A stretch of DNA of 47,273 nucleotides from an uncultured Gammaproteobacteria bacterium (GCA_964606975.1 CAZSGY010000026.1:1-47273), one strand, 5' to 3'; shown: positions 13,792-47,273, counted from the first letter of the stretch. Numbers and translations: made by a program. Notes: generated by a model from the sequence alone, not told the origin.

Positions 13792-13802
13792 TGGTTAGAC
13801 CC

Positions 13803-15820: not shown

Positions 15821-15823
15821 ATC

Positions 15824-16159
15824 TTAGAAAAAACCAACCAGTAAAATGATCTTAACGACAGTTATGCTCGCCATTACCGCAATAAGGAAAGAGGCGACAG
15901 CTACTATTTTTTGAATGAATTCGTCTCTTGTGGCCAAATTAATCAACATATTAATGACCGTTATCAATATAGAAATCCCCGGGATGACAAAAATAAACCA
16001 AGTCGAAGCAAGTTGCTCGGCACCCGTGGGTTTACCGTAAAACAGCGGTACAAGAGGGGGAAGGAAGCTCTTGGTAATAAAAATTCCGACGGTTGTGATT
16101 AAAGACAACCCCACGGCAACAAGAAAATAATTTTTAAAAGTCACTTTTTTCCACCACAT
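15824..16159 (-). CDS. small three-helix membrane protein, unknown function
   Basis: 111-aa hydrophobic ORF packed 3 nt from the downstream gene. No motif recognised. Confidence 0.5.
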   Translation of the reverse strand: MWWKKVTFKNYFLVAVGLSLITTVGIFITKSFLPPLVPLFYGKPTGAEQLASTWFIFVIPGISILITVINMLINLATRDEFIQKIVAVASFLIAVMASITVVKIILLVGFF

Positions 16160-16232
16160 GTCTTAATTTTTAGTTAAAAAAGCAGGATACTTAGCCCGGC
16201 ATCGGCTCAAATTATGTCTAATTGTACGATAT

Positions 16233-30562: not shown

Positions 30563-31655
30563 GCTTGATCATTCTACAGTACTTTCTAACGTACCGAAAA
30601 GAGATGTTTCCGGAAAATCCAAATGGAAAAGAGCCGGTAAGGTTATCCTATTTTCATTCCTGACCTTGTTTTTAATTATTTTTCTGGGAATAGGGGTGTT
30701 TTTTATCAGGTTCCCTATGTTTGCCAAGGCGGCTTATAATTTTGTTGCCTTGCCCAAAAACCCAATTTCTTCCGGCAGCGGATATGTAAACATTTTAGTT
30801 ATGGGTAAGTCCGGGGGAAGTCATGAGGGTTCAGAACTAACAGATTCGATGCTTATTATTTCGCTTCCATTGGAGGGAATGTCTAAAATTACAACGGTTT
30901 CCATTCCCCGCGATATTTGGATTCCTGAACTTAGAGCCAAAATAAATTCAGTTTATTACTGGGGTAAAGAAGGAACACCCTATTTTAAGGTCGAAGAAAC
31001 GGGTGGAGGAATTTCATTTGCTAAAAAAATAACAGGAGGAGTCATCGGACAGCAGATTGATTATGGTGTAGTAGTTGATTTCTCTGCCTTTAAAGATACC
31101 GTGGACGCCATTGGTGGAATTGAAGTAAATGTTGAAAGAGGTTTTATAGACAAGCTCTATCCGATAGAGGGAAAAGAAAATGACATGTGTGAAGGAGATT
31201 CTACCTATGCCTGCCGGTATGAAGAAGTGGTTTTTGATTCAGGTTTGCAGCAGATGGACGGGGAGACTGCTTTGAAATTTGTTCGTTCGCGCCACGCCGA
31301 AGGAGATGAGGGCACTGACATTGCCAGAGAGGCCAGACAACAAAAAGTAATTAAATCGATAGAAAATAAAATTATGTCAAAAGACGTCTTGTTTTCGCCC
31401 GGGAAGATTGCAAACATTTTTGATATTGCTGAAAAATATGTTGAGACCGACATAGACATTCCGACCGCCGGGATATTGGCCAGGTTGACTTATGAAAGCA
31501 GAAATAATGTTTCTCAAAACGTCTTGCCCGAAGACTTGTTGGTGAATCCCAAACCCAGCAAGGATTATGACAACTTGTATGTGTTTATCCCTAAAGCGGG
31601 CAACGGGAAGTGGGAAGAAATTCAGAACTGGTTTAGAGTTGTCAATGGCGACTAA
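30561..31655 (+). CDS. LytR-CpsA-Psr (LCP) family cell-wall glycopolymer ligase
   Basis: N-terminal TM anchor, then YVNILVMGKSGG...LTDSMLIISLP...TVSIPRDIWIP and ALKFVRSRH. Confidence 0.85.
   Translation: MLDHSTVLSNVPKRDVSGKSKWKRAGKVILFSFLTLFLIIFLGIGVFFIRFPMFAKAAYNFVALPKNPISSGSGYVNILVMGKSGGSHEGSELTDSMLIISLPLEGMSKITTVSIPRDIWIPELRAKINSVYYWGKEGTPYFKVEETGGGISFAKKITGGVIGQQIDYGVVVDFSAFKDTVDAIGGIEVNVERGFIDKLYPIEGKENDMCEGDSTYACRYEEVVFDSGLQQMDGETALKFVRSRHAEGDEGTDIAREARQQKVIKSIENKIMSKDVLFSPGKIANIFDIAEKYVETDIDIPTAGILARLTYESRNNVSQNVLPEDLLVNPKPSKDYDNLYVFIPKAGNGKWEEIQNWFRVVNGD
30571..30578 (-). promoter_or_regulatory. TGTAGAAT -10 element, 8 nt upstream of the pcrA ATG (inside the LCP coding sequence)
   Basis: The minus strand reads TGTAGAAT-GATCAAGC-ATG. 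Confidence 0.5.
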
Positions 31656-32809
31656 AAACTCACCCAGCCAAATTTATTAATCCAAAGAACGCCCCACAAA
31701 TTAATCAATATAGACACACTCAAAAGCAGCCAGTGGTGCCAGGCAGGATTTTTTGAACCGAGAGCGTTTACTATTAGCAGAAGCACTAGAGGGTAAAAAT
31801 CAACTGCATATCTATAACCAAATTGGGTAAAACCTGTTCCTCCGTGGATAAAGATAACAAATGCGATTAAAAAAATGGACACCCAAGTAAAAAGATTTAT
31901 CCTCGATTTTAATGGTGCACCAAACGCATAAATAAACGCCGGACTGGTGATAAATATTGAGAGGCCTGCCCAGGACGGCGTGATGTAAGGAAATTCATTT
32001 TTGAGTATTGGGGTAGAAAAAAACATCACTTTAAAATTTGGCCAAATATAAGAAAGGTCAAAAATACCGTTTTTATACCATGGCTCACTGAGCACGCCCG
32101 GAATGAGTCCGTAACCGGTTTCAAAAAAACTACCGAATCTCAGGTAGTTGTACAACGCAAAAAAAACACCGAAAAAAGAAAGACCTAGCAATATTTTCAG
32201 ATAATTTTTGTTTAAATAAAGAATTAGCGGTAAAGCCAGAATTGTTTGGATTCTCGATAAAAACGCAAAACCAAAATATAGAACTACCAAATACCATCTT
32301 TTCTTGTTTAAAGATTCGTAGATCGTTAAAGTTAGAAACAAAAATGCAGAAACTTGTCCGAGATACCAGACGGATCCAGTTGATGCCAAAAACCAAAGAA
32401 TATTTCCGAAAGCTGTCAATAAAAACACCCAAAGAGAGGTTAGTTTGTTTGAAGTTTTTTTGTATGCTATAAGAGCCCAGATAAAAGCTGCCAATGCCCC
32501 CATGATGTGAGCCAGTATCTGTTGCTGAAAATTTTGGTTTAGGATGAGAAGAAAAGGAATTGCGACTATTGCCGGTGCCGGAGGGTAAACAACTGCGAAT
32601 TTGTTCGTTCCGATGGGAATAAGCTCGTTTAACCACGGAGGGTTGTCTGTTAAATAATATTTTCCCTGCAAAAATGCAGTTCCAAGCCTGGTAAAATAGT
32701 CATAAGGGGTTCGTCCGGCCGAAGTCGCTAAATAAATAAAAAATGTTACGACAGTCAGTATTATTAGAAATATATGCCAGGAAGTAAGATTTTTTAGCTT
32801 TTGAAGCAT
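31652..32809 (-). CDS. polytopic membrane protein, GT-C-like putative glycosyltransferase
   Basis: About 10 TM helices. The first loop has RTPYDYFTRLGTAFLQGKYYL...VYPPAPAI. The call rests on architecture and context only. Confidence 0.5.
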   Translation of the reverse strand: MLQKLKNLTSWHIFLIILTVVTFFIYLATSAGRTPYDYFTRLGTAFLQGKYYLTDNPPWLNELIPIGTNKFAVVYPPAPAIVAIPFLLILNQNFQQQILAHIMGALAAFIWALIAYKKTSNKLTSLWVFLLTAFGNILWFLASTGSVWYLGQVSAFLFLTLTIYESLNKKRWYLVVLYFGFAFLSRIQTILALPLILYLNKNYLKILLGLSFFGVFFALYNYLRFGSFFETGYGLIPGVLSEPWYKNGIFDLSYIWPNFKVMFFSTPILKNEFPYITPSWAGLSIFITSPAFIYAFGAPLKSRINLFTWVSIFLIAFVIFIHGGTGFTQFGYRYAVDFYPLVLLLIVNALGSKNPAWHHWLLLSVSILINLWGVLWINKFGWVSF

Positions 32810-34700
32810 GATTAATTATACATTTCTTTTTTTGGGAATTTTATTCGTCACTTTCTTACCGGGATATCTGTTGGTGGAATTATTTTTTGCCGAGGTTAAG
32901 TTTTGGAAAAAAATCCCACTCTATTTGGTTGGCAGCGCAATAATGTCTACATTTTTGGTAGCCGCGCTTGGTTTAATCTTTGGTTTAAGTAGAGGTCTTC
33001 TTCTTGGAGTGGCGGCGGTTTTTTTAATAGCAGCTTTATATGTATTTTTTAAAAAGAAAAAATACAATTCCGATGAGATAAAGAAAAGATTGCCGGAAAT
33101 AATAGTCGGAGTTTTTATCTATGCCATTTATTTTACGGCTCTTTATCCCGCCATCTTCAGTTTTTATAACAATTATTTTGTAATGGGCGGTCCGAACTGG
33201 CAGGACACCGCCATGCACTTATCTATCATTGAGAGTATTGCTCAAGGAAATTTCCCGCCCCAGGCACCGTATTTTTCAGGACAACCTCTAAATTATTATT
33301 ATTTTGCAGATTTGCATGCAGCGATAGCGAACATCTTTTTTGGAGATTTTTTCCCTGAGATTCTGACTCTACTTAATCCTTTCTGGGCGGCAACCTTTTA
33401 TTTTTCAGTTTTTGCACTTACTTATCGATTGACCAAGAAAAAAATATTTTCTGTTATTGCCGGCTTTAGCGCCGTTTTTTACGGCAATTTGGGGTTTGTT
33501 AATTTTTTTAATGCCTTAATAAAGCAAAATAAAAACTATTTTGAATTAGTTGCCGTTAATCCCTTCAATTTTAATTTTGATTACCTGCAAATGGTTCCAA
33601 TGTCTGATTATTTTTTGCAAAACAGACCAATGATGGCAGGTTTGTCTCTGGTTACAGTGGCCATATTATTGCTAATTGATTCAAGCAAAAATCGAAAAAA
33701 TATTATTTTTGCCGGAATAATTGCCGGCTCACTACTTAAATTTCAGATGTTTGGCTTTTTAGTTGTTTGGATGTTTTTTGGGATTTATTTTTTTGTAAAT
33801 CTGATAACCAAAAAAATAACTTTTAAGAAAGTGATTAAAGCCGCGATCCTTTTTGCACCCACAACTTTAATATTGGGATTAATTTCAGTGGCTTCAAAAG
33901 TCGGGACCAGATCAATGTTTCAGGTATTCTTGGACAGTTTTTCCTTTGGCCCATGGCAAGCACACGACGCCGGCTGGTTTATTTGGTTTTTTATCGGCAA
34001 TTTGGGAATAGGTTTTGTTGTTTATATTTTTAGTTTGTTTTTAAAACCTTTGAGAAAAGACACCGCCGCTCTTTGTCTGGCCATTCTTTCCTTGGTTTTA
34101 TTGGCCATTCCGGTTTCTATGAAATTTACGCTTTATGAATTTGACATGCTCAAATTTTATTATTATTTAATCCCCTTAATTTCTGTGTTGCTGGGTTTTT
34201 ATTTTGCCAATTCCAAACACAAATCCGCGGCAGTGTTTCTTTTTATCTTTTTGACAATTACTTCTTCGCTAACCTCCATCAATTTGCTTGCTCATTCGTA
34301 TTTGAATAAAACTCTTGGTTATTCGTACTCAGACTACGAGTCCGGAATTTGGATCCGGGAAAATATCCCTCAAAAATCAGTTTTTGTTACCCTACCCACC
34401 GTGCATTCCGCACCCAGCGATATAGGAGGGAGATTAAGGGTAATTTCCTATATTAATTGGCCGTACTCACACGGATTTAACACGGGTTCTGATAATGTGT
34501 TTTCGAGGGTTTATGACGTAAGAGTTGTATATGAAACTGGCGACACTTCTCAAATCAAGCTAAAATATGGGGCAAAGTTTATATATTTGGGACATGAGGA
34601 AAAGGCTCAATTTCCCAACGCCGATCGTGTTTTTGATAAAGAAACAAACTTAAATAAGGTTTACGATAAAGACGGAATCAAAATTTATGAAATTTTTTAA
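32808..34700 (+). CDS. large polytopic membrane protein, GT-C-like (NYYYF loop motif)
   Basis: 630 aa with more than 12 TM helices. The loop GGPNWQDTAMHLSIIESIAQGNFPPQAPYFSGQPLNYYYFADLH is reminiscent of YYY-motif membrane glycosyltransferase-like families. A soluble C-terminal domain is present. Confidence 0.5.
   Translation: MINYTFLFLGILFVTFLPGYLLVELFFAEVKFWKKIPLYLVGSAIMSTFLVAALGLIFGLSRGLLLGVAAVFLIAALYVFFKKKKYNSDEIKKRLPEIIVGVFIYAIYFTALYPAIFSFYNNYFVMGGPNWQDTAMHLSIIESIAQGNFPPQAPYFSGQPLNYYYFADLHAAIANIFFGDFFPEILTLLNPFWAATFYFSVFALTYRLTKKKIFSVIAGFSAVFYGNLGFVNFFNALIKQNKNYFELVAVNPFNFNFDYLQMVPMSDYFLQNRPMMAGLSLVTVAILLLIDSSKNRKNIIFAGIIAGSLLKFQMFGFLVVWMFFGIYFFVNLITKKITFKKVIKAAILFAPTTLILGLISVASKVGTRSMFQVFLDSFSFGPWQAHDAGWFIWFFIGNLGIGFVVYIFSLFLKPLRKDTAALCLAILSLVLLAIPVSMKFTLYEFDMLKFYYYLIPLISVLLGFYFANSKHKSAAVFLFIFLTITSSLTSINLLAHSYLNKTLGYSYSDYESGIWIRENIPQKSVFVTLPTVHSAPSDIGGRLRVISYINWPYSHGFNTGSDNVFSRVYDVRVVYETGDTSQIKLKYGAKFIYLGHEEKAQFPNADRVFDKETNLNKVYDKDGIKIYEIF
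32815..32822 (-). promoter_or_regulatory. TGTATAAT -10 element, 5 nt upstream of the ATG at 32809 (inside the divergent gene)
   Basis: The minus strand reads TGTATAAT-TAATC-ATG. Confidence 0.5.
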
Positions 34701-37107
34701 GAGATATAAAAACATTTTATATCTGCTTTTGTTTGCGCTGATTTTGAGGATACCACTTTCCTTTTTTGGGACTTTGGAACTAGACCAAAATACATTTATT
34801 GCTTGGAGTTCCGATTTGGCAAAAAACGGTTTTAAAAATTTTTACAATGGATGGAGTGATTATTTGCCCGGATATTTATATTTTTTGTGGGGGTTGGGAA
34901 AGGTGAATTTATTAAATATATTTCCGGAAGTCCTTCTCTATAAAATTCCTGGAATTCTTGCTGATTTGGCAACCGGTTTTTTGATTTATGAAATAATTAA
35001 GAAATACAAAAACGAAAAATGGGGTTTAATTGCAGCCGCAATATATGTCTTCAATCCGGCAATAATTGCCAACTCCACTTTTTGGGGACAGGTTGACTCG
35101 CTGACATCGTTAGCTTCAATTGCTGCCGTTTATTTATTAAGTCGGAACTATGTACTTTCCGCTGCCGTCCTGGCCGCCGGAACATTGATCAAGCCCCAGG
35201 CGGCGTTTATTATGCCCATTATTTTTATACTAATGCTTAAAGAAAAATGGAAGTTCTCAAAGATACTTATTTACCTGACTAGCGGCCTTATAGTCTTTAT
35301 TTTGGGGTTTGTGCCGTTTGCCAAAGGAGACCTAATTCCCTTTGTTTTAGATAGATTGACTCTCTCGGCCAACCAATATCCCTATACTTCAGTAAATGCA
35401 TTTAATTTCTGGGGGCTTTTTGGATTTTGGAGACCTGACAATATTTACCTCCAGTTTGGGGGGTATCTTGTTGTTTTACTAACAACAGTTTTATTTTCCC
35501 TAAAGTATGCCAAAAAGAAGCTTGCCGTTTACTATCTTTTGACTTTTGTTTTTGCTGCCAGCTTTATGTACTTTACACGAATGCATGAAAGACACCTCCT
35601 GCCGCTTTTGGCTCCGTTGGCAATAGTATCTGTCGACAACCCCGCACTTTTGCTCGTGTATTTGGGGTATTCGCTAATTTATTTTGCCAATTTGGTTTAT
35701 TCTTATTTCTGGATCTCAAATAATTTTATTCAGGTTTTTCCGGATTTTTTTATCAAGTTATTAATTTTTTTAAATAACTCATTTTTAATATATATAACTT
35801 ACGTCATATTAAAAGACAAAAAAGTGTCTTGGAAAAGATTTTCGTCAATATTTATCTTATTGGCTAAGAAAATAAAAAGCAGGAAAACCAGGGTTGTTAA
35901 GTTGCCGGATCTAAAATTAAATAAAAATACAATTAAGGCGATTCTTTTTTTGATTTTGGGGTTTGCATTTGTTACTAGGGTTTTTGATTTAAGCAAACCC
36001 GATACCATGTACTTTGATGAGGTTTACCACGCTTTTACCGCCAAGGTGATGATGGGGCCTGAATCTTATAAAGCTTGGGAGTGGTGGAACACTCCTCCTG
36101 AGGGGTATGCGTATGAATGGACACATCCGCCTCTGGCCAAATTGGGAATGGTTTTGGGAATGTCCATTTTCGGTCAAACCTCATTTGGGTATCGGATTCC
36201 CGGAGCCATCTTGGGAGTGGGAGCAGTATTTTTGGTCTATCTTATTGCCAGGCATATTTTTAAGGACGAGGCAATCGGATTAATGGCAGCGGCCGCGTTT
36301 TCTTTAGATGGTCTGGCGCTTGTCATGAGTCGGATTGGAATGAATGACAGTTATATTCTTTTTTTCTCCTTACTTTCTATTTATATGTTTATGAAAGAAA
36401 AAGATTTGTTTTCTGCTACCTCCTTTGGTTTGGCTATTTCTTCAAAATGGTCTGCCGTTTGGGCGATTCCGATCTTTTTTGTTTTGTGGCTAAAGCGAAA
36501 AAACAAATTCAAACCCTCGATTTTTTGGTTTGTGCTTTTACCGCCGGTTATTTACCTCTTGTCGTATTTGCCGATGTTTGCCACGGGGCACACTCTGTCC
36601 ACATGGTGGGGAATGCAACAGCAAATGTGGTGGTATCACACAAGGCTTGAAGCGACACATCCTTACACGTCTCAGTGGTGGACGTGGCCGCTTTTAATCC
36701 GACCGATTTATCTTTATACAAGTAACGAAATAGGAGGTATGGTCAGTAGAATCTATGCAATGGGCAATCCGTTTGTGTTTTGGTTCGGTTTGCTTTCGGT
36801 AATTGCCTCAGCAGCTTATGCGGCAATTGAGAAGAACAAAAGCCTGGGATTGGTGGTTTTTTCCTATTTAATTTTCTTTGCAGCTTGGGCAGCATCTCCG
36901 AGAATTATGTTTTTGTATCACTATTTACCCTCCGTCCCATTTATGGCAATTGCCACCGCTTATGTCTTGCGCCGGAACTCAAAACTTGTACCGCTTTATT
37001 TTGGATTGTGTTTTCTGGCGTTTGTTTATTTTTACCCGCATTTTATCGGATTAAACATCCCCCTTGCCTTGGATAGAAGCTATTATTGGTTGAGTACCTG
37101 GAGATAG
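34687..37107 (+). CDS. fusion of two GT-C modules: N-terminal mannosyltransferase-like module plus C-terminal Pmt-type protein O-mannosyltransferase module
   Basis: Residues 1 to ~390 are polytopic with LDQNTFIAWSSDLAKNGF...YLPGYLY. Residues ~400-806 carry YFDEVYHAFTA, WTHPPLAKLG and C-terminal HPYTSQWWTWPLLIRPIY, typical of bacterial Pmt. Confidence 0.65.
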   Translation: MKFFKRYKNILYLLLFALILRIPLSFFGTLELDQNTFIAWSSDLAKNGFKNFYNGWSDYLPGYLYFLWGLGKVNLLNIFPEVLLYKIPGILADLATGFLIYEIIKKYKNEKWGLIAAAIYVFNPAIIANSTFWGQVDSLTSLASIAAVYLLSRNYVLSAAVLAAGTLIKPQAAFIMPIIFILMLKEKWKFSKILIYLTSGLIVFILGFVPFAKGDLIPFVLDRLTLSANQYPYTSVNAFNFWGLFGFWRPDNIYLQFGGYLVVLLTTVLFSLKYAKKKLAVYYLLTFVFAASFMYFTRMHERHLLPLLAPLAIVSVDNPALLLVYLGYSLIYFANLVYSYFWISNNFIQVFPDFFIKLLIFLNNSFLIYITYVILKDKKVSWKRFSSIFILLAKKIKSRKTRVVKLPDLKLNKNTIKAILFLILGFAFVTRVFDLSKPDTMYFDEVYHAFTAKVMMGPESYKAWEWWNTPPEGYAYEWTHPPLAKLGMVLGMSIFGQTSFGYRIPGAILGVGAVFLVYLIARHIFKDEAIGLMAAAAFSLDGLALVMSRIGMNDSYILFFSLLSIYMFMKEKDLFSATSFGLAISSKWSAVWAIPIFFVLWLKRKNKFKPSIFWFVLLPPVIYLLSYLPMFATGHTLSTWWGMQQQMWWYHTRLEATHPYTSQWWTWPLLIRPIYLYTSNEIGGMVSRIYAMGNPFVFWFGLLSVIASAAYAAIEKNKSLGLVVFSYLIFFAAWAASPRIMFLYHYLPSVPFMAIATAYVLRRNSKLVPLYFGLCFLAFVYFYPHFIGLNIPLALDRSYYWLSTWR

Positions 37108-37109
37108 CC

Positions 37110-37397
37110 TTAGGCGGGTGCCAAATAAAAACCTCCCTTAACGATCACATACACAAGCGCTCCCAAAAAGAGGATCATAATTAGAAAGTAAATAACCGAC
37201 CATTTGCCGGATTTTGGAAAAAATTTGTCAAAAGGGTAATAAGAGAAGATTTCCGGCTTTAATCTTTTTAGGGAGTAAGTTGTTATCCAATAGGCAAAGA
37301 AAAATACTATTAGAAATCCGATCACAAAAATTATATCAACATAATTTGTCCGGATAAAATCTATTCCGGGTGTGATTGAAGAAATAATTTTGTTCAC
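37110..37397 (-). CDS. two-helix membrane protein, unknown; last gene of the PilN/PilO-led operon
   Basis: 95-aa hydrophobic ORF, 6 nt downstream of the preceding gene. Confidence 0.45.
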   Translation of the reverse strand: MNKIISSITPGIDFIRTNYVDIIFVIGFLIVFFFAYWITTYSLKRLKPEIFSYYPFDKFFPKSGKWSVIYFLIMILFLGALVYVIVKGGFYLAPA

Positions 37398-37403
37398 AAG
37401 CTT

Positions 37404-37898
37404 TTAGAGAGCCAAAAGTATTGCGCCTAAGATTATCAAGATGCCAAATCCGGCACCAAAAAGTGTGGGCCAACCGGTCCCGGATTGGGGAAGCGATGCT
37501 TCGGTGGGTGTCGGGGTGGCAGTATTAACACTAACCGATGTCGACGTCGGTGTGGCGGCTGCCTTCGTCGGCGTTGCTGTCGGTGTCGGGGCGATATAAC
37601 CTGTTGGGGTTGGTGTCAGTGTAGTAAGCGGTGTGGCCGTTGCCATAGCAGTGGTAGTTGGGGTTGCGGTCAAAGTCGGAATTGGGGACTCAGTGGGTCC
37701 GGAGATTGTAAAAGTTATCGAACAATTATTTACGGGCGCCACATTTTCTGCTTTGGGAAGACTTTCGGGGACATTAGGAGCAACAGGTTCTTGTCTTAGC
37801 TCATACAACCTAATGGCGGTGAAGATGGCAATTCCCGCCAGGATAACAGTTGTAATTATTATTAAAATTGTTCCGAGTTTGCTAACTGGTTTTTTCAT
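37404..37898 (-). CDS. Thr/Pro-rich surface protein with LPQSG C-terminal sorting-signal-like tail
   Basis: N-terminal signal/anchor, then a ~90-aa T/P/A-rich low-complexity region, ending ...TPTPTEASLPQSG plus a 24-aa hydrophobic tail. Confidence 0.6.
   Translation of the reverse strand: MKKPVSKLGTILIIITTVILAGIAIFTAIRLYELRQEPVAPNVPESLPKAENVAPVNNCSITFTISGPTESPIPTLTATPTTTAMATATPLTTLTPTPTGYIAPTPTATPTKAAATPTSTSVSVNTATPTPTEASLPQSGTGWPTLFGAGFGILIILGAILLAL
37407..37493 (-). other. sorting-signal-like C-terminus (LPQSG at 37479-37493 plus hydrophobic tail)
   Basis: LPQSG-TGWPTLFGAGFGILIILGAILLAL-stop. Confidence 0.5.
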
Positions 37899-37907
37899 AT
37901 TTTTTGA

Positions 37908-38927
37908 TTAAAACCACCCCAACGTGGCGTGGTGAACTTGTCCTGTGACTGAAAAAGTTGTTGTTCCTTCAGGTATGGTATAAGACTGACAATAAATAGT
38001 AGATTCTGGTTTTTGAGTGGTTCCTGGTTTCAGCATTGTGGTATCTGACTGTTGTACTCCGTTGATAATAAATCTGGCCATGTCAAAAGAGCCTGAAGTT
38101 GCAGAACCTGACACACATAAATTAATTACATCTCCGGCCTTTAATGAAGACCTATCAGTTGATGCAAGGGTGTTCCAGTCGGCATCAAAGGTTGTTACAC
38201 TGCTACAGCTGGCGGTCGTTGTGGGGGGCGCAGTTGGGGGCGTAGTTGGGTTGGTCACGGGGGGTGTTGTGCTACTGTCGCATTGTTTGGGACTAAGAGA
38301 ACATTGAACAGCATAGGGTTCTTGTCCGTCACAAATAACGGCGGTGTTAAAACACCACCACTTTCCATATTCATAATTTTTCCAGGTATAGCCGGACGGA
38401 CAAAGGCAATTCCCATCAGGAACAATAATTCCGGGGTTACCTTTTAGGTTATAACAAGCATACTCATTATTTTGTCCACCCTGGAAACAATCTCCTGATA
38501 CAACATTGCCGACGCAGGAGTGGCTTCCTAAATTTTCACATATAGGATAAACAGCCTTTTGTTGGAAAAGTTGTTTTTGCCCGACCGTGTAAGTTGCGAT
38601 AGCAACACCTCCGACCAGTGCAAAAATTCCTAAAATTGTGGCGATTATTTTTCCTGTCCCAAATTTTTTCTTGGGTGTAGAAGTAATGTTGGAAAAATCC
38701 GGGGGTGGTGCGGCCGACCCGGGATTGCCGGCTGGTGTTACTGGAGTAACAGGAGAAGCTGCTTGATTCACCGAGGTGTCCGGGGTCAATGTGTCCTGTG
38801 GAGCGGTTGTAACATTCGAGAAATCAGTGGGTGTGGGAGGCAAATCAGTTTGAGGGGAAAATGGAGCGGATCCAAGATCGTTTGTCTGCGGGGTTTGGCT
38901 TGGGTCGGGCTGATTTTGGTTGGGCAT
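37908..38927 (-). CDS. type II-anchored protein: P-rich tail, TM helix, 10-Cys module, T/P linker, beta-rich C-terminal domain
   Basis: 339 aa with 10 Cys within 88 residues (ICENLGSHSC...SLSPKQC). The start codon shares 1 nt with the upstream stop. Confidence 0.6.
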   Translation of the reverse strand: MPNQNQPDPSQTPQTNDLGSAPFSPQTDLPPTPTDFSNVTTAPQDTLTPDTSVNQAASPVTPVTPAGNPGSAAPPPDFSNITSTPKKKFGTGKIIATILGIFALVGGVAIATYTVGQKQLFQQKAVYPICENLGSHSCVGNVVSGDCFQGGQNNEYACYNLKGNPGIIVPDGNCLCPSGYTWKNYEYGKWWCFNTAVICDGQEPYAVQCSLSPKQCDSSTTPPVTNPTTPPTAPPTTTASCSSVTTFDADWNTLASTDRSSLKAGDVINLCVSGSATSGSFDMARFIINGVQQSDTTMLKPGTTQKPESTIYCQSYTIPEGTTTFSVTGQVHHATLGWF

Positions 38928-40300
38928 TAATTTTTATTAGATATCTTCCAGGTATAGAAACTAAATGAAATTACTACTAATCCCATCATAAACAGCAGAA
39001 TGCTTGGAGTCAAGCTTCCAGATTGCGGCAGGGAAGCTTCGGTTGGTGTAGGTGTTTTTGTGGGTTTTGGTGTAGGTGTTTTTGATATAGCGGGGGCTAT
39101 CGTGGACAGAGGTGTTGCACTTGGTTTTGGCGTGGGTTGGGTTGTGGCAGGTGTGTTTACTGGTGTTCCCGATGGAGTGGCAACAAAAGCCGGCAATTCT
39201 CCTGCTTGAACAACAAAACTTCTGGTCAGAGTTCTTTTAATCCCGGAAACATCTACCCAAGAGATGGTAACAGAATGGGTTCCCGGGGCTAAATTTGTTG
39301 GCGGTGACCAACTCCAGAGACCTGCGGAAGAAACTTTAGACGTTCCTGAAATTTGATTTTCTGAGTTAACGATAATAGTAATTTCTGTTCCCACAGGTCC
39401 CTCACCAAAAAATTCCGGTTTCTGGCTTGAAATTATTTCCCCTTCAGAAACGTTCTCCAGCGTTACACTTTTTGTTTGTGTGATTTTCTCACCGTTTAAG
39501 TTGAATTTTGATTCGATAGTTGCCGATTCAGGCAAGTTTAAGTCCGCGCTTGGGTTTTCTCCATCTAAACTTGGTTCGAGACTCCTAAAATCCTGATCCC
39601 GGCCGATGATTAATGCGGGAATGGGGTTGGCGGATCTGGAAAATATTTTTGCAGTTGCCATCTCGCCCGGGCCATTGGCGGCAGAAACCTCCAAAAGTGT
39701 TTTGTTCGCATCCACCTGTGCATATGCAGCGAGGTCTGTCGTTCTTACAGAACCAATTTGTAAAACAAACGTCCCATTGTCGGATGATAGTGTGGAAACG
39801 GTGTAGCCATTGATTGTTATATAAACTATCGCCCGTTTTACCACCTCGCCGGAAGCAGTAATTACCGAACCGGAAACCGGAATTGTTATCGGACTAATAG
39901 GTAAAAGGGCGCCCGTGGTAAATTGCCAGGGAACTCCATTGTTATCAAAAGTTGTTCCTTCGGAATTAATTTTAAAAAAATATTCCGTATTTGGATTCAG
40001 TCCCGTAAGGGTAATGCTGTGGGTAACAAATTTATCATCATTTTCAGTTTCGTTAATTAAAGTCCCCACATTTTTATTTGTTCCATACGAAACAAATCCC
40101 GTTGTTTGGTCGTCTGTAATCCAAGAAATAGTTGCCGAAGAATCGGTTAGATTGCTTATTCTGACATCTTTTGGGGTAATCGTTGGCCCGGCCCCAATTT
40201 TAAATATTTGATTGTTTTTTAAAAGAAACACCCCGGCAAACACTCCGGCGAAAAGCAAGAGTATTCCTAAAATGGTAGGGATTTTATTTTTTTTGATCAT
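38927..40300 (-). CDS. multidomain surface protein (Fn3-like, CarboxypepD_reg-like, Ig-like) with T/P linker and LPQSG tail
   Basis: Fn3-like SATISWITDDQTTGFVSYG...LTGLNPNTEYFF. Ig-like GLWSWSPPTNLAPGTHSVTISW. C-terminus TPTPTEASLPQSG, then a hydrophobic helix, then KISNKN. Confidence 0.65.
   Translation of the reverse strand: MIKKNKIPTILGILLLFAGVFAGVFLLKNNQIFKIGAGPTITPKDVRISNLTDSSATISWITDDQTTGFVSYGTNKNVGTLINETENDDKFVTHSITLTGLNPNTEYFFKINSEGTTFDNNGVPWQFTTGALLPISPITIPVSGSVITASGEVVKRAIVYITINGYTVSTLSSDNGTFVLQIGSVRTTDLAAYAQVDANKTLLEVSAANGPGEMATAKIFSRSANPIPALIIGRDQDFRSLEPSLDGENPSADLNLPESATIESKFNLNGEKITQTKSVTLENVSEGEIISSQKPEFFGEGPVGTEITIIVNSENQISGTSKVSSAGLWSWSPPTNLAPGTHSVTISWVDVSGIKRTLTRSFVVQAGELPAFVATPSGTPVNTPATTQPTPKPSATPLSTIAPAISKTPTPKPTKTPTPTEASLPQSGSLTPSILLFMMGLVVISFSFYTWKISNKN
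38930..39031 (-). other. sorting-signal-like C-terminus (LPQSG at 39017-39031, hydrophobic helix, basic end)
   Basis: LPQSG-SLTPSILLFMMGLVVISFSFYTWKISNKN-stop. This is the tripartite layout of sortase-type signals. Confidence 0.55.
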
Positions 40301-40620
40301 TGTTCAGGTAAGCCGCTGGGTGACGCCTCAGGTGTGGCTGAAGGTAGAGGTGTCTCCGTTGTTGGCGTTTGTACAGTACTCGTTGGCCCGCTAAAACTCA
40401 TTTGCGGAATTTCCGAATCGGGTATAAAAATTGCAGATTCAATTTTTTGGATCACTTTAGTGTTCAGAGTCGGATTTAAAGGTTTCAATACTTCTTCCGG
40501 GACAGGTGTCGGAGGTTTTACAGAGATGGCTCTATAAATACCCAGACCCACCCAAACCAGGGCAGTCAGGAGCGTCAGAATAAGTATTGTTATTGGTTTT
40601 GGTAAGGATTCCTTTTTCAT
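40297..40620 (-). CDS. small single-pass membrane protein with T/P-rich C-terminus
   Basis: MKKESLPKPITILILTLLTALVWVGLGIY... ATG at 40620 lies 1 nt after the PilO-like stop and is preferred to the 40677 start. It overlaps the next gene by 4 nt. Confidence 0.5.
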   Translation of the reverse strand: MKKESLPKPITILILTLLTALVWVGLGIYRAISVKPPTPVPEEVLKPLNPTLNTKVIQKIESAIFIPDSEIPQMSFSGPTSTVQTPTTETPLPSATPEASPSGLPEQ

Positions 40621-40621
40621 A

Positions 40622-41281
40622 TTATTTGTCGCTTCCCAGATAAGGCACTCTTCCGGATACAACCGCAACGATGACACGACCCGATTCTGTAACCGAGGAA
40701 TTTATGGTAATACTGTCGATTGCAGAAATAGTCCTGAGCTTTTCTAAATCCCTAATAAAATTACTTATGTTGGCATAGCCGCCCCTGATGCTAATAGAAT
40801 ACCCCATTTCATTTGCACCTTCGGGGAGAGGTTTAAGCTCTCCCGAAACTCTAACAGTTTTTGGACTTCCCACAAGAATAACGTCATTGATAACAAGGCC
40901 TATAAGCTCCACCCCGTCTCTGGCAGATAAGCCTTCGATTTGTTTTGTAAACAAATCGGGACTCGGCGCAGAAGAAACAGCTGTGTTAATTTTCTCTAAA
41001 TACATTTGGTTTTGGATCAAAACACCATTGGCTTTTTGTAAATCGCTGACTTTTTGGTTAAGTGCCTCAAGGGTTTTCTTTTCCTCTTTAATTTGTTGGA
41101 CAAGGCTAATAATGGTTATAGCCGTAGGTTTGAGTGCAAACATAGCAAAAATAATTACGGTTACAATTGACAGAACTATTTCCAGGAAGGCGCGCAAATC
41201 AGCCCTTTTTTTATAAAGGGAGGAAATATTCAAAAATAACTCTTTGTATCTGTAGTATGACGATCTCCAGCCTGTTGCCAT
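40622..41281 (-). CDS. pilO: PilO-like type IV pilus/T2SS-type assembly protein
   Basis: Basic N-terminus, one TM helix, a coiled coil (QQIKEEKKTLEALNQKVSDLQKAN), and a C-terminal block YANISNFIRDLEKLRTISAIDSITI. Confidence 0.6.
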   Translation of the reverse strand: MATGWRSSYYRYKELFLNISSLYKKRADLRAFLEIVLSIVTVIIFAMFALKPTAITIISLVQQIKEEKKTLEALNQKVSDLQKANGVLIQNQMYLEKINTAVSSAPSPDLFTKQIEGLSARDGVELIGLVINDVILVGSPKTVRVSGELKPLPEGANEMGYSISIRGGYANISNFIRDLEKLRTISAIDSITINSSVTESGRVIVAVVSGRVPYLGSDK

Positions 41282-41282
41282 C

Positions 41283-41813
41283 TTAGTATTTAATATTAAT
41301 TACAAACTCGATTTCACCTGCATTTTTTTCCGATGAGTTTACTGGTCCAAGTTCGGCACTTTTAAACGAACCATCTTGTAAGCCGGCTACAAATCTGGAT
41401 ATGTCGTAATCTGACAGAGAAGATCCTCTGACTTCTATTGAGTCTTTAAATAACGAAATTCTGGATAATACAACAGTTTCCGGAACCTTGCTGGTCACCT
41501 TTTCTACCAACGAGGACATCTGGTTGCTTTGACCCGTTTTATCAAAAACGTTTAATTTTGTCTGAACACCCCTGAATTGTTTTTCCAGATCTGCCTGGGC
41601 TGAAATTTGAGCACTTTTTACTTTGATGGAGTTATTTAAACTGGAATTTTGTGCATCCAGCCAAAAACGTGACAAAAACGCTGCCATGACTACCATTTCC
41701 GTAACAATAACTATTATGCGGAAAGTGCCGGTTGTCCACTTAAGAATACGACCTGCTGTTGAAGCGTTGAACTCCTCTTGTGGCAAAAGGTTAATAGATT
41801 TATTTTTGGGCAT
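41283..41813 (-). CDS. pilN: PilN-like assembly protein
   Basis: N-terminal PilM-docking-type motif SINLLPQEE, then a TM helix, a coiled coil and a small alpha/beta domain. ATG at 41813 preferred to the TTG at 41837. Confidence 0.68.
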   Translation of the reverse strand: MPKNKSINLLPQEEFNASTAGRILKWTTGTFRIIVIVTEMVVMAAFLSRFWLDAQNSSLNNSIKVKSAQISAQADLEKQFRGVQTKLNVFDKTGQSNQMSSLVEKVTSKVPETVVLSRISLFKDSIEVRGSSLSDYDISRFVAGLQDGSFKSAELGPVNSSEKNAGEIEFVINIKY

Positions 41814-41943
41814 ACATCGCGTTGTTTTAATTTCCAATTATTGCACGCCAATTTTCAATAAAAAATGAGATCTGGCAAATAGGAAATGTGCTCTAATCAA
41901 TATAGCACATGTAAATGCGTGAAAGAAGCTTTGTTAATGAGAA

Positions 41944-42237
41944 TTATTTCCCCTTCGAAGAAACCTTTTTTACTGTCTTAGCGGCGGCCTTTTGGGGAGC
42001 CTTGACCGCAATCAGTTTAGAAAGCTGGGATTTTATTCTGGAAGCCTTATTTTTGTGAATAATCTTCTTTTTTGCGGCGCGGTCGGCAAGAGAGATGGCG
42101 GAAATTACTTTATCATTACTTTTAGATTTTTTAGCCATGCGGATTGAGATTTCCAGTCTTTTGATCAAAAGACTGTTAACTTTGTTTTTATTTTTGGAGC
42201 CCCTTAGTGCCCTTTTTGCTGTTTTGGTTACTGGCAT
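41944..42237 (-). CDS. rpsT: 30S ribosomal protein S20
   Basis: 97-aa basic protein with TKTAKRALRGSKNKNKVN...DRAAKKKIIHKNKASRIKSQL. Confidence 0.9.
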   Translation of the reverse strand: MPVTKTAKRALRGSKNKNKVNSLLIKRLEISIRMAKKSKSNDKVISAISLADRAAKKKIIHKNKASRIKSQLSKLIAVKAPQKAAAKTVKKVSSKGK

Positions 42238-42329
42238 ACCGGTTAATTTGTCAAATTTTAAATTTAAAATTCAAAATTTCTTCGTGGTTGTTAGTATATG
42301 GCAAAGAAGCTAGAATATCAAGAAGAGAC

Positions 42330-44057
42330 ATGGAAAATTTGATCGCCAAAGGTAAGAAAATAATCAACTCTCAACAAAATAGCATTCTTTCAGCGGCCAC
42401 CCTGATTATGATAATGATTGCCACCTCCATGATCTTAGGACTTATCCGACAGAGGGTTTTGGCAAGTTACTTTGATCCAAATTCGCTTTCATTATTTTTT
42501 GCCGCTTTCAGGTTGCCTGATGCAATTTTTCAGGTCTTGGTTTTTGGTACGTTTTCATCTGCCTTTATACCGGTATTTACAAAATCTTTAAAAGAAGGTG
42601 AGGCGAAAGCCTGGCAGCTTGCGGGTAAGATAGTTTCAATAGGTTTAGTGATCTTTATTTTGGCAGTTGCGGTTGCGGCAATTTTTACCCCCCAAATATA
42701 CGCAATCATTGCTCCCGGTTTTGATAAGGAGGAAAATGCCCAAATCGCCTTTTTGGCTAGAATCCTGTTTTTGGCTCAGGGCTTTTTTGTGATCAGTTAT
42801 GTTTTGACCGGAGTTTTGGAATCATTAAGACGTTTTTTGATTCCGGCTTTGGCACCAATTTTTTACAATCTGGGAATAATTTTAGGTACGGTAATTTTAA
42901 CTCCGTATATCGGATTAACAGCACCGGCTGTCGGGGTAGTGATTGGAGCTTTTGCACATTTTGCAATTCAGTACCCGCTAAGCAGAAAACTTGGCTTTAG
43001 ATTTACTTGGGATCTTAGGGCAGATGAGGGAGTTAAAAAAATCGGAAAACTTGCATTGCCCCGTGCAGTCGATTTGGCTTTTGATCAAATAGGTAAAAGT
43101 ACTGAACTTTTTCTTTCCTCGCTGATATCTCAGGCCTCATATACCTACTATACTTTTGCTAATTCTTTGCAGCTTCTTCCGGTGACCCTTTTTGGGACAT
43201 CGCTTGCCAAAGCAGTGCTTCCCATGCTTTCGGATGCAAGTGGCGACAAGGTCAAGTTCAGGAAAATTCTTCTTTCGGCAATATATCAGGCGGTATTTTT
43301 TACCCTCCCCCTGGCTGCCGCTCTGATTGCGCTTAGAATCCCGGTGGTTAGGCTTATTTATGGAACAAAAATATTTAATTGGGAATCTACTGTCCAAACC
43401 GGGACAGTGCTTTCAGTGTTTGCCGTTTCTATAGTATTTCAGACTTTAATGTCTATTCTTGTGCGTTCCTTTTTTGCTTTGCATGACACAAAAACTCCGG
43501 TTAAAGTTTCCTTTATCGGACTTGGTCTTTTGGTGGTTGCCGATTTTGTATTAGTTATCGGCTTCCACATGGATGTTTGGGCATTGGCTGCGTCTTTCGC
43601 TTTCAGCACCTTAGTGGAAGCAGTAATACTAATGATATTAATTAACAAGAGGATTGGGGGAATCGTTAACTTGAAGTTTTTTACCCACACTTTAAAGATT
43701 TTTACTGCCACAATAGTTTCCGGGGGTGCAATGTATTTTATGCTTAAGATTTTCGACAAATCTGTGTGGGTTAAAAGGCTGTCTTTCTTGGGCGGAATAG
43801 ATGCTACCAGCGCTTTTCCTTTTGAGAAATTCGTATTGGACACCCGTTATACCGGAAATCTGATCATTCTCACTCTGGTGACTTTTTTGGTCGGACTTGC
43901 TATTTACATACTTCTGTCTCTTTTGTTTAAGGTTGACGAAGCCAAATACTTTCTTAGTCTTACAAAAGGGATCTTTCTCAAAAGGATTTCGCCCTCCATT
44001 CCGGCTCAGGAAGAGGAGCCTGTTTCTCCTACCACAGAACCCCCAAACAGTACTTGA
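42330..44057 (+). CDS. murJ: lipid II flippase MurJ
   Basis: LGLIRQRVLASYF...FFAAFRLPDAIFQVLVFGTFSSAFIPVF and about 14 TM helices. ATG at 42330 preferred to 42207, which would overlap rpsT. Confidence 0.85.
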   Translation: MENLIAKGKKIINSQQNSILSAATLIMIMIATSMILGLIRQRVLASYFDPNSLSLFFAAFRLPDAIFQVLVFGTFSSAFIPVFTKSLKEGEAKAWQLAGKIVSIGLVIFILAVAVAAIFTPQIYAIIAPGFDKEENAQIAFLARILFLAQGFFVISYVLTGVLESLRRFLIPALAPIFYNLGIILGTVILTPYIGLTAPAVGVVIGAFAHFAIQYPLSRKLGFRFTWDLRADEGVKKIGKLALPRAVDLAFDQIGKSTELFLSSLISQASYTYYTFANSLQLLPVTLFGTSLAKAVLPMLSDASGDKVKFRKILLSAIYQAVFFTLPLAAALIALRIPVVRLIYGTKIFNWESTVQTGTVLSVFAVSIVFQTLMSILVRSFFALHDTKTPVKVSFIGLGLLVVADFVLVIGFHMDVWALAASFAFSTLVEAVILMILINKRIGGIVNLKFFTHTLKIFTATIVSGGAMYFMLKIFDKSVWVKRLSFLGGIDATSAFPFEKFVLDTRYTGNLIILTLVTFLVGLAIYILLSLLFKVDEAKYFLSLTKGIFLKRISPSIPAQEEEPVSPTTEPPNST

Positions 44058-45384: not shown

Positions 45385-47273
45385 ATGGGAAAAATAATAG
45401 GTATTGATTTAGGAACAACAAATTCATGTGTGGCAGTGATGGAGGGTGGCCGCCCTAAAGTTATTCCTGCCGTGGATACGGGTAAAAATACTACTCCGTC
45501 AGTTGTTGAACCAGTCAAAAATTTAGTAGGAGATGTGGCCAAGAGACAAATGATTCTTAACTCCAAGAATACGGTTTATTCGGCAAAACGCCTTATGGGA
45601 AGACGCTTCGAGGACAAGGAAGTTAAGCGCACCATTGACATGGTACCTTACAAAATTGCAGAAGGTAAAAACGGAATGGCCGATATTGAGATCGATGGCA
45701 AGAATTACACTCCCCAGGAGATTAGCGCCAGAGTTTTAATGAAACTTAAAAAAGATGCGGAAAAATATCTGGGTGAGAAAGTTGATCAAGCCGTTATTAC
45801 AGTCCCTGCGTATTTTGATGATGCACAGCGACAAGCGACAAAGCAAGCCGGTGAAATTGCCGGATTAAAAGTTGAGCGCATTATCAATGAACCCACAGCC
45901 GCGGCTTTAGCGTACGGATTGGATAAGAAAAATTCCGAAAAGATTGCGGTCTACGATCTTGGAGGAGGAACCTTTGACATTTCCATTTTGGAAATCGGAG
46001 ACGGAGTCATTGAGGTTAAGGCGACAAATGGGGATACGCATTTGGGAGGAGACGATTTTGATGCAGCAATAGTGGATTACATTGTTTCTGAATTTAAGAA
46101 AGAACAGGGAGTAGACCTCAAAGCAGACACCCAAGCTTACCAGAGAGTCCGTGATGCTGCAGAAAAGGCAAAAATTGAACTTTCCGCCGCTTCGGAAGTT
46201 GAGATCAACCAACCATACATCACTCAAAAAGATAGTCAGCCTCTGCATCTGACAATGAAGCTTACCCGGGCAAAAATGGAAAGCTTGGTTGACGAGCTGA
46301 TACAAAAAACCCTTAAGCCCGTAGAACTTTGCTTGAAAGATGCAAAGCTGGATGCACACGATGTAAATGAAGTGGTTATGGTCGGAGGTATGACCAGGAT
46401 GCCCAAGGTGGTCGAAACAGTCAAAAACTTTTTCGGTAAGGATCCGAACCAATCGGTAAATCCCGACGAGGTTGTTGCGGTTGGGGCTGCAATACAGGGC
46501 GGAGTTTTAGGTGGTGAGGTTAAGGATATTCTGCTTTTGGATGTCACTCCGTTGACACTGGCTATAGAAACTTTAGGCGGAGTAGCCACGCCCATGATTC
46601 CCAGAAATACAACCGTTCCTACCAGTAAGACCGAGGTTTTTTCAACTGCGGCAGATAATCAAACTCAGGTCCAAATCGTTGTAACTCAAGGAGAGCGTCC
46701 GATGAGTGCTGATAACAAAACTTTGGGGACATTCATTCTCGATGGGATTCCCCCCGCACCCCGTGGTGTCCCGCAGGTTGAAGTTACATTTGATATGGAT
46801 GCTTCCGGGATTTTAACTGTTACCGCCAAGGATAAGGCAACAAGTAAAACTCAGAATATTAAGATTACCGGTGCAGTCGGACTCTCTGACGACGAAATCA
46901 AACGTATGCAGGAAGAAGCTGAGAAGCACAAAGAGGAAGATGAAAAGAAAGCCGAACTTATCAAAACCAAAAATAATGCAGACGCTATGGTGGCTACTGC
47001 TGAAAAAGCACTTAAAGACGCGGGCGACAAGGTTTCAGCCGATGTGAAGTCTAAGGTTGAAGAAAAGATTTCCAAAGTTAAGGAAATTGCCGGAAAAGAA
47101 GATTCCAGTAAAGAAGACATTGAGACAGCAACAAAAGATCTTTCGGACACATTAAGTCAGATCGGTCAGACTATGTATGGAAACCAAGATGCCCCCCAGG
47201 GAGAACAATCAAAAGAAGGTAATGGAGAAGAGAAAAAAGAAGAGAAGAAGGACGAAAAAGTTGAAGAGGGAGA
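45385..47273 (+). CDS. dnaK: chaperone DnaK (3' end outside the window)
   Basis: ATG at 45385. [42 protein letters not shown]. The frame is open to the window end, so it is absent from the ORF track. Confidence 0.96.

Follow-up and report, generated by a model that had tools for sequence, protein, structure and literature searches.

A stretch of 47,273 nt deposited as an uncultured Gammaproteobacteria bacterium (GCA_964606975.1, CAZSGY010000026.1:1-47273; the whole stretch is referred to here as the window) was analyzed and found to contain seven closely packed minus-strand open reading frames (ORFs), designated G1 to G7, headed by genes for PilN and, by profile, PilO of the type IV pilus machine. 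PilN, PilO, G3 and G4 form a unit that is conserved beside murJ and rpsT across the Microgenomates, and G5 to G7, together with a gene of the PMT glycosyltransferase family, form a narrower addition centered on the Woesebacteria. The PilN/PilO alignment proteins are a known kind of component; what is new is the conserved arrangement, in which they are encoded with new partner proteins that are widely kept in the Microgenomates and so far unannotated. The reading we favor, to which we give about the same weight for as against, is that the operon encodes the membrane-to-wall module of a type IV pilus machine, split off from the genes for PilM, the motor and the pilins, which would lie at another site. 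The features on which the argument draws are as follows.

41283..41813, minus strand: G1, PilN, 176 aa; INLLP peptide, one membrane helix, long coiled helix, C-terminal alpha/beta domain
41772..41798, minus strand: SINLLPQEE, the N-terminal peptide of G1, verified by translation
40622..41281, minus strand: G2, PilO, 219 aa; one membrane helix, coiled coil, C-terminal alpha/beta domain
40297..40620, minus strand: G3, 107 aa, single-pass; member of the conserved core
38927..40300, minus strand: G4, 457 aa, Fn3/Ig beta-sandwich stalk; member of the conserved core
40184..40282, minus strand: N-terminal membrane module of G4, IPTILGI..L..G.FAGV.L...Q.F.IGA
38930..39031, minus strand: C-terminal sorting-type signal of G4, LPQSG followed by 23 hydrophobic residues and KISNKN
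37908..38927, minus strand: G5, 339 aa, with a type II-like layout
38547-38645, minus strand: membrane module of G5, resembling that of G4
38279-38540, minus strand: 10-Cys block of G5, from translation
37404..37898, minus strand: G6, 164 aa, Thr/Pro-rich, with an LPQSG tail
37407-37493, minus strand: C-terminal LPQSG tail of G6, from translation
37110..37397, minus strand: G7, 95 aa, two membrane helices
34687..37107, plus strand: PMT-family (GT-C) O-mannosyltransferase-like gene (Pfam PMT, PMT_2 and PMT_4TMC), convergent with G7 and abutting it
41944..42237, minus strand: rpsT (ribosomal protein S20, by Pfam), upstream of G1
42207..44057, plus strand: murJ, lipid II flippase (Pfam MurJ, E 1.9e-74), divergent here

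The seven ORFs were listed anew and run from 41813 down to 37110 at the coordinates originally given for them; the junctions from G1 to G7 were recomputed as +1, +1, -4, -1, +9 and +6 nt, again in agreement with the original prediction. The rpsT gene lies 130 nt upstream of G1 on the same strand. Of 46 related genomes, nearly all keep each of G1 to G6 in order and about one third keep G7, and because this order is conserved the seven are not chance ORFs. Spacing and conserved order suggest that all seven genes are carried on a single transcript; scans for consensus promoters and terminators gave matches at chance level and were uninformative on transcript structure.

G1 is PilN. Its start was placed at 41813 (MPKNK) by alignment with homologues, rather than at an upstream TTG at 41837. 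The protein scores 26.2 bits against Pfam PF05137 (PilN), above the cutoff of 22.8, the same family is precomputed on every listed homologue, and a profile built from 20 homologues has M. xanthus PilN (3jc8, E 2e-6) as its top match in the PDB. An AlphaFold2 model (predicted local distance difference test score, pLDDT, 79) has a helix over residues 19-108, preceded by a short N-terminus, and an alpha/beta domain over residues 114-175; this predicted arrangement corresponds to the bitopic layout of PilN, in which a single membrane helix and a coiled coil lead to a ferredoxin-like domain at the C-terminus. Foldseek superposes the C-terminal domain on periplasmic domains from EpsL, PulL and XcpY with template modeling (TM) scores of 0.71-0.76, and also matches domains of PilO, PilN and GspM (overall TM 0.5-0.76). 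The PilN hallmarks originally recognized in gene 1 are thus borne out by family score, profile, predicted fold and the N-terminal peptide, of which residues I7, N8, L9, L10 and P11 are invariant in 20 Woesebacteria homologues, with I-N-L still invariant in relatives 27-41% identical to G1. Peptides of the INLLP type at the PilN N-terminus dock PilM, as seen in the PilM-PilN structures of T. thermophilus and P. aeruginosa. By analogy, the G1 peptide would dock a PilM, and a PilM partner for G1 is expected because the docking peptide is invariant. G1 does not stand beside pilM, which is the usual context of PilN rather than a strict criterion of the family.

Two other identities were considered for these proteins and rejected. 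GspL is built of a cytoplasmic actin-like domain fused to a membrane helix and a periplasmic domain; the cytoplasmic part of G1 is only about 20 residues long, so that the actin-like domain is absent and only the periplasmic fold is shared. Division proteins of the FtsL or DivIC type, suggested for G1 and G2 by a weak DivIC match and the murJ neighbor, were set aside on the PilN/PilO-specific profile matches and the ferredoxin-like domain.

G2 is assigned as PilO by profile. As a single sequence it scores 19.7 bits against Pfam PF04350 (PilO), under the cutoff of 22. A profile of 38 G2 sequences from related loci matches M. xanthus PilO (3jc8) at E 1.4e-6; its matches to P. aeruginosa PilO are weak and non-significant (5uvr, E 0.022; 2rjz, E 0.05). 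The membrane helix lies at about residue 26 and is followed by a coiled-coil region, and the gene begins 1 nt downstream of G1, so the PilO layout ascribed to gene 2 on first reading is joined by a profile match, bitopic topology and a position directly after pilN. The G1 and G2 profiles match PilN and PilO, respectively, of one solved machine (3jc8). No mismatch of genes 1 and 2 with PilN/PilO-type folds was seen, as the G1 fold and the G2 profile both match. The two profiles show no significant similarity to each other by hhalign; this has no bearing on either identity, each matching its own family.

The extent of conservation was assessed at three depths. Homologues of G1 were detected in 798 cases, many of them named "Tfp pilus assembly protein PilN" in JGI records, with the NCBI records coming from Microgenomates. 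A scan restricted to one genome per species yielded 46 loci, nearly all from metagenome-assembled genomes (MAGs) of Ca. Woesebacteria, Microgenomates or Patescibacteria and including four complete chromosomes. In nearly all 46 the order is GrpE-HrcA-MurJ, then rpsT-G1-G2-G3-G4-G5-G6(-G7), then PMT, with close or overlapping junctions in the PilN-PilO-G3-G4 part, and it is retained down to 31% G1 identity. An exhaustive profile search returned 2779 clusters of PilN relatives, the best 150 of which are without exception stand-alone proteins, no longer than about 215 aa and mostly about 180 aa. A metagenome scan with distant PilNs added 80 further loci. Among 82 distant loci, counting in each case those with room for the gene in question, profile hidden Markov models (HMMs) recovered G2 in 61 of 61, G3 in 53 of 53 and G4 in 34 of 36, and G5 and G6 in 7 of 27 each. 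A Pacebacteria-type distant locus (about 30% identical) reads rpsT on the minus strand, MurJ on the plus strand, PilN, PilO, a G3-like gene and a G4-like gene. The PilN-PilO-G3-G4 core survives differing upstream and downstream genes at 28-43% PilN identity, and the adjacency of rpsT and murJ to pilN is kept across the Microgenomates though the orientation of these two genes flips, murJ being co-directional with pilN and directly upstream of it in the Pacebacteria-type loci. In one locus of that type (L054) the operon has four genes and is bounded after G4 by rRNA genes. The PMT gene occurs in the distant loci mainly where G5 and G6 are present.

Of the seven-gene unit proposed originally, the four-gene core of PilN, PilO, G3 and G4 therefore stands as the conserved part, and G5 to G7 are of narrower distribution. 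The alternative that the downstream genes might be unconserved fillers or variably associated does not hold for G3 and G4, given the counts above. These sequence patterns suggest that G3 and G4 are functionally coupled to PilN and PilO.

Two observations on the loci themselves are recorded here. On the 1.08 Mb Pacebacteria-type contig of L054, 5S rRNA, 23S rRNA and tRNA genes lie at 13574-17332 (minus strand), directly downstream of G4 and on the opposite strand. Of the GTDB representative MAGs with the Woesebacteria-type locus, many stand in public records under the title "uncultured Gammaproteobacteria bacterium" or under "Alphaproteobacteria bacterium" (for example L010, L012, L013 and L043), and these look mislabeled.

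The two core partners differ in how far they can be related to known families. G3 has no match in Pfam, NCBIfam or the PDB; its alignment contains a conserved membrane helix with T19 and W23 invariant, a conserved segment "PL.PTLD...IE..F" and a disordered Thr/Pro-rich tail. G4 matches fn3, Pur_ac_phosph_N, Big_13 and, weakly, a CarboxypepD_reg-like family in Pfam. Its AlphaFold2 model, computed from a 75-sequence alignment (pLDDT 78), has an N-terminal membrane helix at 7-29, three beta-sandwiches at 44-128, 141-237 and 288-364, and a C-terminal membrane helix at 432-456 that follows a disordered Thr/Pro linker. The first domain is Fn3, a second beta-sandwich follows, and the third domain type is a Big_13/SiiE-like Ig domain; Foldseek places the model with tandem Fn3 arrays and with the extender domains of giant adhesins (SiiE, ice-binding adhesin). 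The description of gene 4 as a 457-aa Fn3/Ig-like multidomain protein is thereby supported by Pfam, model and structure search alike.

Both ends of G4 are conserved. The N-terminal membrane module is strongly so, and an N-terminal alignment showed the membrane helices of G3, G4, G5 and G6 to be unusually conserved; G3 and G4 are single-copy, and their helices are conserved far beyond the need of a plain signal peptide. The C-terminal tail has all three parts of an LPXTG signal, namely LPQSG (with Ser at position 4), 23 hydrophobic residues and the basic KISNKN, and P425 and G428 of the motif are invariant in 75 homologues. Against the LPXTG_anchor model (TIGR01167) it scores 15.0, just under the cutoff of 15.9; among 34 members of the family, LPXTG_anchor matches 4 and EF0750_LPXTG matches 11. 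In distant homologues the C-terminal motif [LIVAM]Px[TSA]G is present in 24 of 34 and degenerate, with the helix kept, in 10 of 34, the degeneration falling outside the Woesebacteria. The conserved helices at both ends leave two options, and G4 may be either sortase-linked to the wall or a two-anchor membrane protein.

A class III prepilin signal consists of a short basic leader with Gly at -1 and a hydrophobic helix that usually has Glu at +5. The aligned N-termini of G3 to G6 have neither a Gly/Ala-hydrophobic cleavage motif nor Glu at +5, and a regular-expression scan for the signal was negative as well. The reported lack of class III signals in the downstream proteins is thus confirmed for these four, and they were rejected as cryptic pilins.

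G5 begins with about 85 Pro-rich residues, and since these precede a basic cluster and the membrane helix the N-terminus is probably cytoplasmic. The 10-Cys module noted earlier is present, with 3 further Cys, and the Cys count of homologues ranges from 3 to 48. The conserved C-terminal domain ends "FCQSYTIP..TTF.V..QIHH.TLGWF", and searches of Pfam and the PDB gave no match for the protein. By hhalign, the N-terminal module of G4, residues 7-39, is homologous to that of G5, residues 95-127 (95.8% probability, E 7e-9; other helix pairs among these proteins gave E 4e-4 to 0.13). The common module has 33 residues, "I(P/A)TILG..L..G..AGV.L...Q.F...A", and in G5 about 90 residues, including the Pro-rich region, come before it. 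It is a candidate lineage-specific signal for sorting or assembly.

G6 has a conserved N-terminal helix and a Thr/Pro-rich region, and ends in LPQSG-TGWPT and a hydrophobic stretch that closes with LLAL and has no basic tail. Across its homologues in L003-L050 the family signal reads "LPx[SA]G-T(D/G/S)WPT" followed by a Gly-rich hydrophobic stretch ending LLLAL. The original prediction had two proteins ending in the same LPQSG tail; both tails are present, in G4 and G6, but they belong to different, separately conserved signal types, and that of G6 may be a second class of sorting signal distinct from the LPXTG-like tail of G4. The window G6 has 1 Cys in 164 aa, and most homologues have 185-205 aa with a module of about 9 Cys, "C.GTCGSN.NC...C..G.CRNPSC...TDC.C"; the window copy is a reduced variant from which the Cys module has been lost. 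Some long homologues (300-435 aa) carry DUF11 or CARDB inserts. The G5-G6 pair is tandemly duplicated in some Woesebacteria (L005, 13001-16512; L046, 12903-17645), and this duplication of the pair suggests that G5 and G6 work as a unit.

G7, with its two membrane helices and a conserved loop "YYPFD.FFP.SG.WS", was found only in a subset of Woesebacteria (13 homologues by BLASTP on called ORFs). The adjacent PMT gene occupies its position in nearly all Woesebacteria loci and is found mostly in loci with Thr/Pro-rich G5 and G6; the enzyme would O-glycosylate the Thr/Pro-rich segments. It encodes a protein of 806 aa, the N-terminal half of which has no assignment, and its stop lies 2 nt from the convergent stop of G7, which leaves no room for a terminator.

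Other pilus genes were sought around the operon. Pfam searches of essentially all ORFs of at least 90 aa in the window detected neither pilM, pilB/T, pilC or pilD nor a gene for a pilin or a sortase, and motif scans of the window found no PilB/PilT Walker A box, prepilin G|FTLxE signal or PilT His box. Motif scans for an ATPase Walker box, a prepilin signal and a PilT His box were likewise negative within 10 kb of the operon in 135 loci. No PilM_2 or FtsA-like gene was present in the window or in the annotated contexts of relatives. When 131 flank ORFs from 13 long loci were scanned, the Pfam families common to the flanks were LepA, MurJ, Cmk, SmpB, Wzy_C and penicillin-binding proteins, and no pilus family was among those found in two or more flank ORFs. 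The missing pilM, ATPase, platform and pilin of the original prediction are therefore missing from the neighborhood throughout these scans. Two window ORFs were considered as a hidden PilM, X385 (31652-32809) and a 502-aa ORF (16233-17741), and both were rejected as polytopic membrane proteins with a GT-C-like look.

Published surveys bear on where such genes may lie. PilB/T, PilC, PilM, PilN, PilO, PilD and pilins are reported to be widespread in the candidate phyla radiation (CPR), with sortase near-ubiquitous among the Microgenomates (PMC6744442). For one complete genome of that group, pilins together with PilD, PilB, PilT, PilC and PilM are described at a single locus, in a list that does not include PilN or PilO (PMC7143001). 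These reports of pilus genes elsewhere and the INLLP motif are the grounds for the premise of a split locus. For the same reasons, namely the invariant PilM-docking peptide and the published CPR pilus surveys, a split pilus locus, which the original prediction had kept as its fallback, is at least as likely as the pilus-independent function with which it led.

In the split-module reading, PilN and PilO would associate as a membrane pair, held together by helices, coiled coils and ferredoxin-like domains, and the INLLP peptide of PilN would dock a cytoplasmic PilM encoded elsewhere, which would link the pair to the PilB/PilC motor and platform. G3 and G4 would be lineage-specific outer parts of the PilN/PilO module. 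In a cell with no outer membrane they would replace the PilP and PilQ of diderms and tie the platform to peptidoglycan or to the surface layer, with G4 either sortase-linked to the wall or retained as a two-anchor membrane protein. In Woesebacteria-like carriers G5, G6 and G7 would have been added as further wall or surface components, or as cargo, with the disulfide-rich, Thr/Pro-rich G5 and G6 probably O-glycosylated by the adjacent PMT enzyme. The Microgenomates would thus have split the machine, with cytoplasmic and filament parts in one locus and the membrane-to-wall part beside cell-wall genes. The identities of PilN and PilO, the domain make-up of the proteins, their conservation and the gene order are observed; the docking of PilM, membership in a pilus machine, a wall-anchoring role and glycosylation are what we infer.

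Several results weigh against this reading. For no carrier of the operon were pilM, pilB, pilC or pilins located within ±10 kb (135 loci), and no sortase gene was located in the window. G3, G5, G6 and G7 have no informative matches in Pfam, NCBIfam or the PDB, and no detectable relatives of known function. G4 has the fold of a generic adhesin stalk, and none of its Foldseek matches is pilus-specific. The operon's constant place beside murJ is a hint that its context is the cell wall and not the pilus. Finally, Saccharibacteria keep pilM, pilN and pilO inside their pilus loci (PMC11623550), so a systematic split in the Microgenomates needs an explanation of its own.

Some of the same results speak for a PilN/PilO scaffold, perhaps with a PilM-like partner, that has been recruited to a different envelope job independent of pili, which we regard as unlikely. 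A membrane cage or platform of this kind would position, export or anchor G3 to G6 near the export of lipid II by MurJ and the action of sortase. No pilus motor, platform or pilin motif lies within 10 kb at the 135 loci, no pilus family recurs in the flanks of the 13 long loci, murJ stays next to the operon despite an inversion between lineages and runs in the same direction in the Pacebacteria-type loci, and the window is dense in envelope genes (PMT, other GT-C, LytR-CpsA-Psr, FemAB and MurJ). There is also a precedent in H. pylori, an organism without pili, where PilMNO homologues build a cage of the flagellar motor (PMC10823254). The simplest explanation for the invariant PilM-docking peptide, however, is an ordinary PilM belonging to a pilus machine; if a paralogue had been recruited, a second, canonical pilNO pair would be expected, and none is in evidence; and the adjacency of murJ and rpsT is explicable by local inversion of a stable gene block. 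A more specific proposal, that PilN/PilO with G3 and G4 (and with G5 to G7 in Woesebacteria) is a non-pilus, CPR-specific machine standing beside MurJ for export, O-glycosylation and wall attachment of surface proteins through recognition of the shared "I(P/A)TILG...AGV...Q.F...A" module, we consider unlikely.

In a further reading, an ordinary PilN and PilO of a pilus would simply be co-transcribed with unrelated surface or wall proteins (adhesins, wall glycoproteins) in G3 to G7, the order persisting because small genomes rearrange little. The generic adhesin-stalk architecture of G4 would fit, as would the Cys variation, duplication and DUF11/CARDB inserts of G5 and G6, which are typical of fast-evolving surface proteins, and the wider flanks (GrpE-HrcA-MurJ, PMT) are also syntenic within Woesebacteria. 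That the PilN-PilO-G3-G4 core outlives flank changes at 28-43% PilN identity, that its junctions are 1 nt or overlapping, and that G3 and G4 are single-copy with such strongly conserved membrane helices all argue otherwise, and we think this explanation quite unlikely. Least probable, and in our view improbable, is an analogue of type II secretion in Gram-positive cells, in which a pilus-type machine with PilN and PilO would push folded G4 to G6 as cargo through the peptidoglycan. In Clostridium perfringens, secretion of BsaC, a folded protein, through the wall depends on the type IV pilus (T4P) machine and needs PilM/N/O, PilB, PilC, PilD and a pilin (PMC11580942), and G4 to G6 are extracytoplasmic and multidomain or disulfide-rich. 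They keep membrane helices or sorting-type anchors, however, and so look like retained envelope components, and there is no pseudopilin evidence nearby.

Type IV pili are thought to be central to the attachment of CPR/Patescibacteria to host cells and to feeding on them, and the CPR envelope is unusual in being monoderm and covered by an S-layer. To our knowledge, no PilP, PilQ or other outer pilus parts have been identified in CPR. The PilN-PilO-G3-G4 set, annotated only as hypothetical, Ig-like or Fn3, supplies concrete candidates for these missing outer parts. Should its carriers have a second pilNO pair or no pili, the operon would be a second case of PilN/PilO re-use after the flagellar cage of H. 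pylori. The membrane module shared by G4 and G5 and the two distinct C-terminal signals are candidate new sorting signals.

The remainder of the window is a CPR-type housekeeping and envelope neighborhood with tRNA synthetases, TsaD/E, GroES/EL, VanW, two FemAB, LytR-CpsA-Psr, several GT-C/PMT-like glycosyltransferases, MurJ, HrcA, GrpE and apparently DnaK; an Rfam search of the window returned tRNA-Cys only. Large polytopic membrane proteins are encoded at 34687-37107 (plus strand), 32808-34700 (plus strand), 31652-32809 (minus strand) and 16233-17741 (minus strand), the first three clustered at 31.6-37.1 kb; the set comprises the PMT-family protein, a DUF2298 protein and two with no Pfam match and a GT-C-like look. 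The murJ ORF, if begun at its GTG at 42207, overlaps the divergent rpsT start by 31 nt (42207-42237). Because homologues have 548-604 aa and this ORF 616 aa, the real murJ start is probably further downstream, which would leave a short shared divergent promoter region. Near the end of the window an ORF matching NAD-GH (PF10712) at 45907-46452 (minus strand) sits where the synteny of relatives (GrpE, then HSP70) places a plus-strand dnaK, and the plus-strand dnaK region (45400-47273) runs off the window end. The minus-strand ORF at 45907-46452 probably belongs to the known spurious antisense-of-DnaK family and is thus probably no real gene.

Among known systems, the closest comparison is with the type IVa PilM-PilN-PilO subcomplex of M. 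xanthus, P. aeruginosa and T. thermophilus, with which the operon shares the PilN features, the PilO profile and the order of pilN then pilO; PilM-PilN-PilO systems are also found in monoderms, in Clostridium, Streptococcus sanguinis and Saccharibacteria. It differs from the type IVa loci in having no pilM upstream and no ATPase, platform, peptidase or pilin within 10 kb in the 135 loci, in having the single-pass G3 and the Fn3/Ig stalk G4 after pilO in place of pilP/pilQ or minor pilins, and in its place beside murJ and rpsT. G3 and G4 hold the operon position directly after pilN and pilO that is taken by PilP/PilQ in the type IVa pili of diderms and by GspC in type II secretion systems, and would similarly put membrane-tethered beta-sandwich domains next to PilN/PilO, a likeness suggestive of functional analogy. 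No resemblance to the PilP/GspC HR domain or to secretins was found for them, either in sequence or in fold, and G4 matches Fn3 and BIg adhesin-extender domains instead.

The tails of G4 and G6 invite comparison with the LPXTG substrates of Gram-positive sortases. In G4 a Thr/Pro-rich linker leads to [LIV]Px[ST]G, a hydrophobic stretch and a basic tail, and G6 has LPx[SA]G and a hydrophobic stretch, with no basic tail. Unlike such substrates, G4 has Ser at position 4, falls just under the HMM cutoff and has a motif that is degenerate in distant lineages; its N-terminal helix is conserved like a permanent anchor, and no sortase gene is near. As in the flagellar PilM/PilN/PilO cage of H. pylori, PilN and PilO are encoded away from pilus genes; there, however, pilM is in the operon and pili are absent, whereas here the operon is without pilM and pili are reported as widespread in the phylum. 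With the T4P-dependent secretion of C. perfringens the operon would share a monoderm machine with PilM/N/O tied to the export of surface or matrix proteins through the wall. In that system the cargo operon is separate and the cargo is released, whereas the candidate proteins of the present operon are encoded together with pilNO and have anchors.

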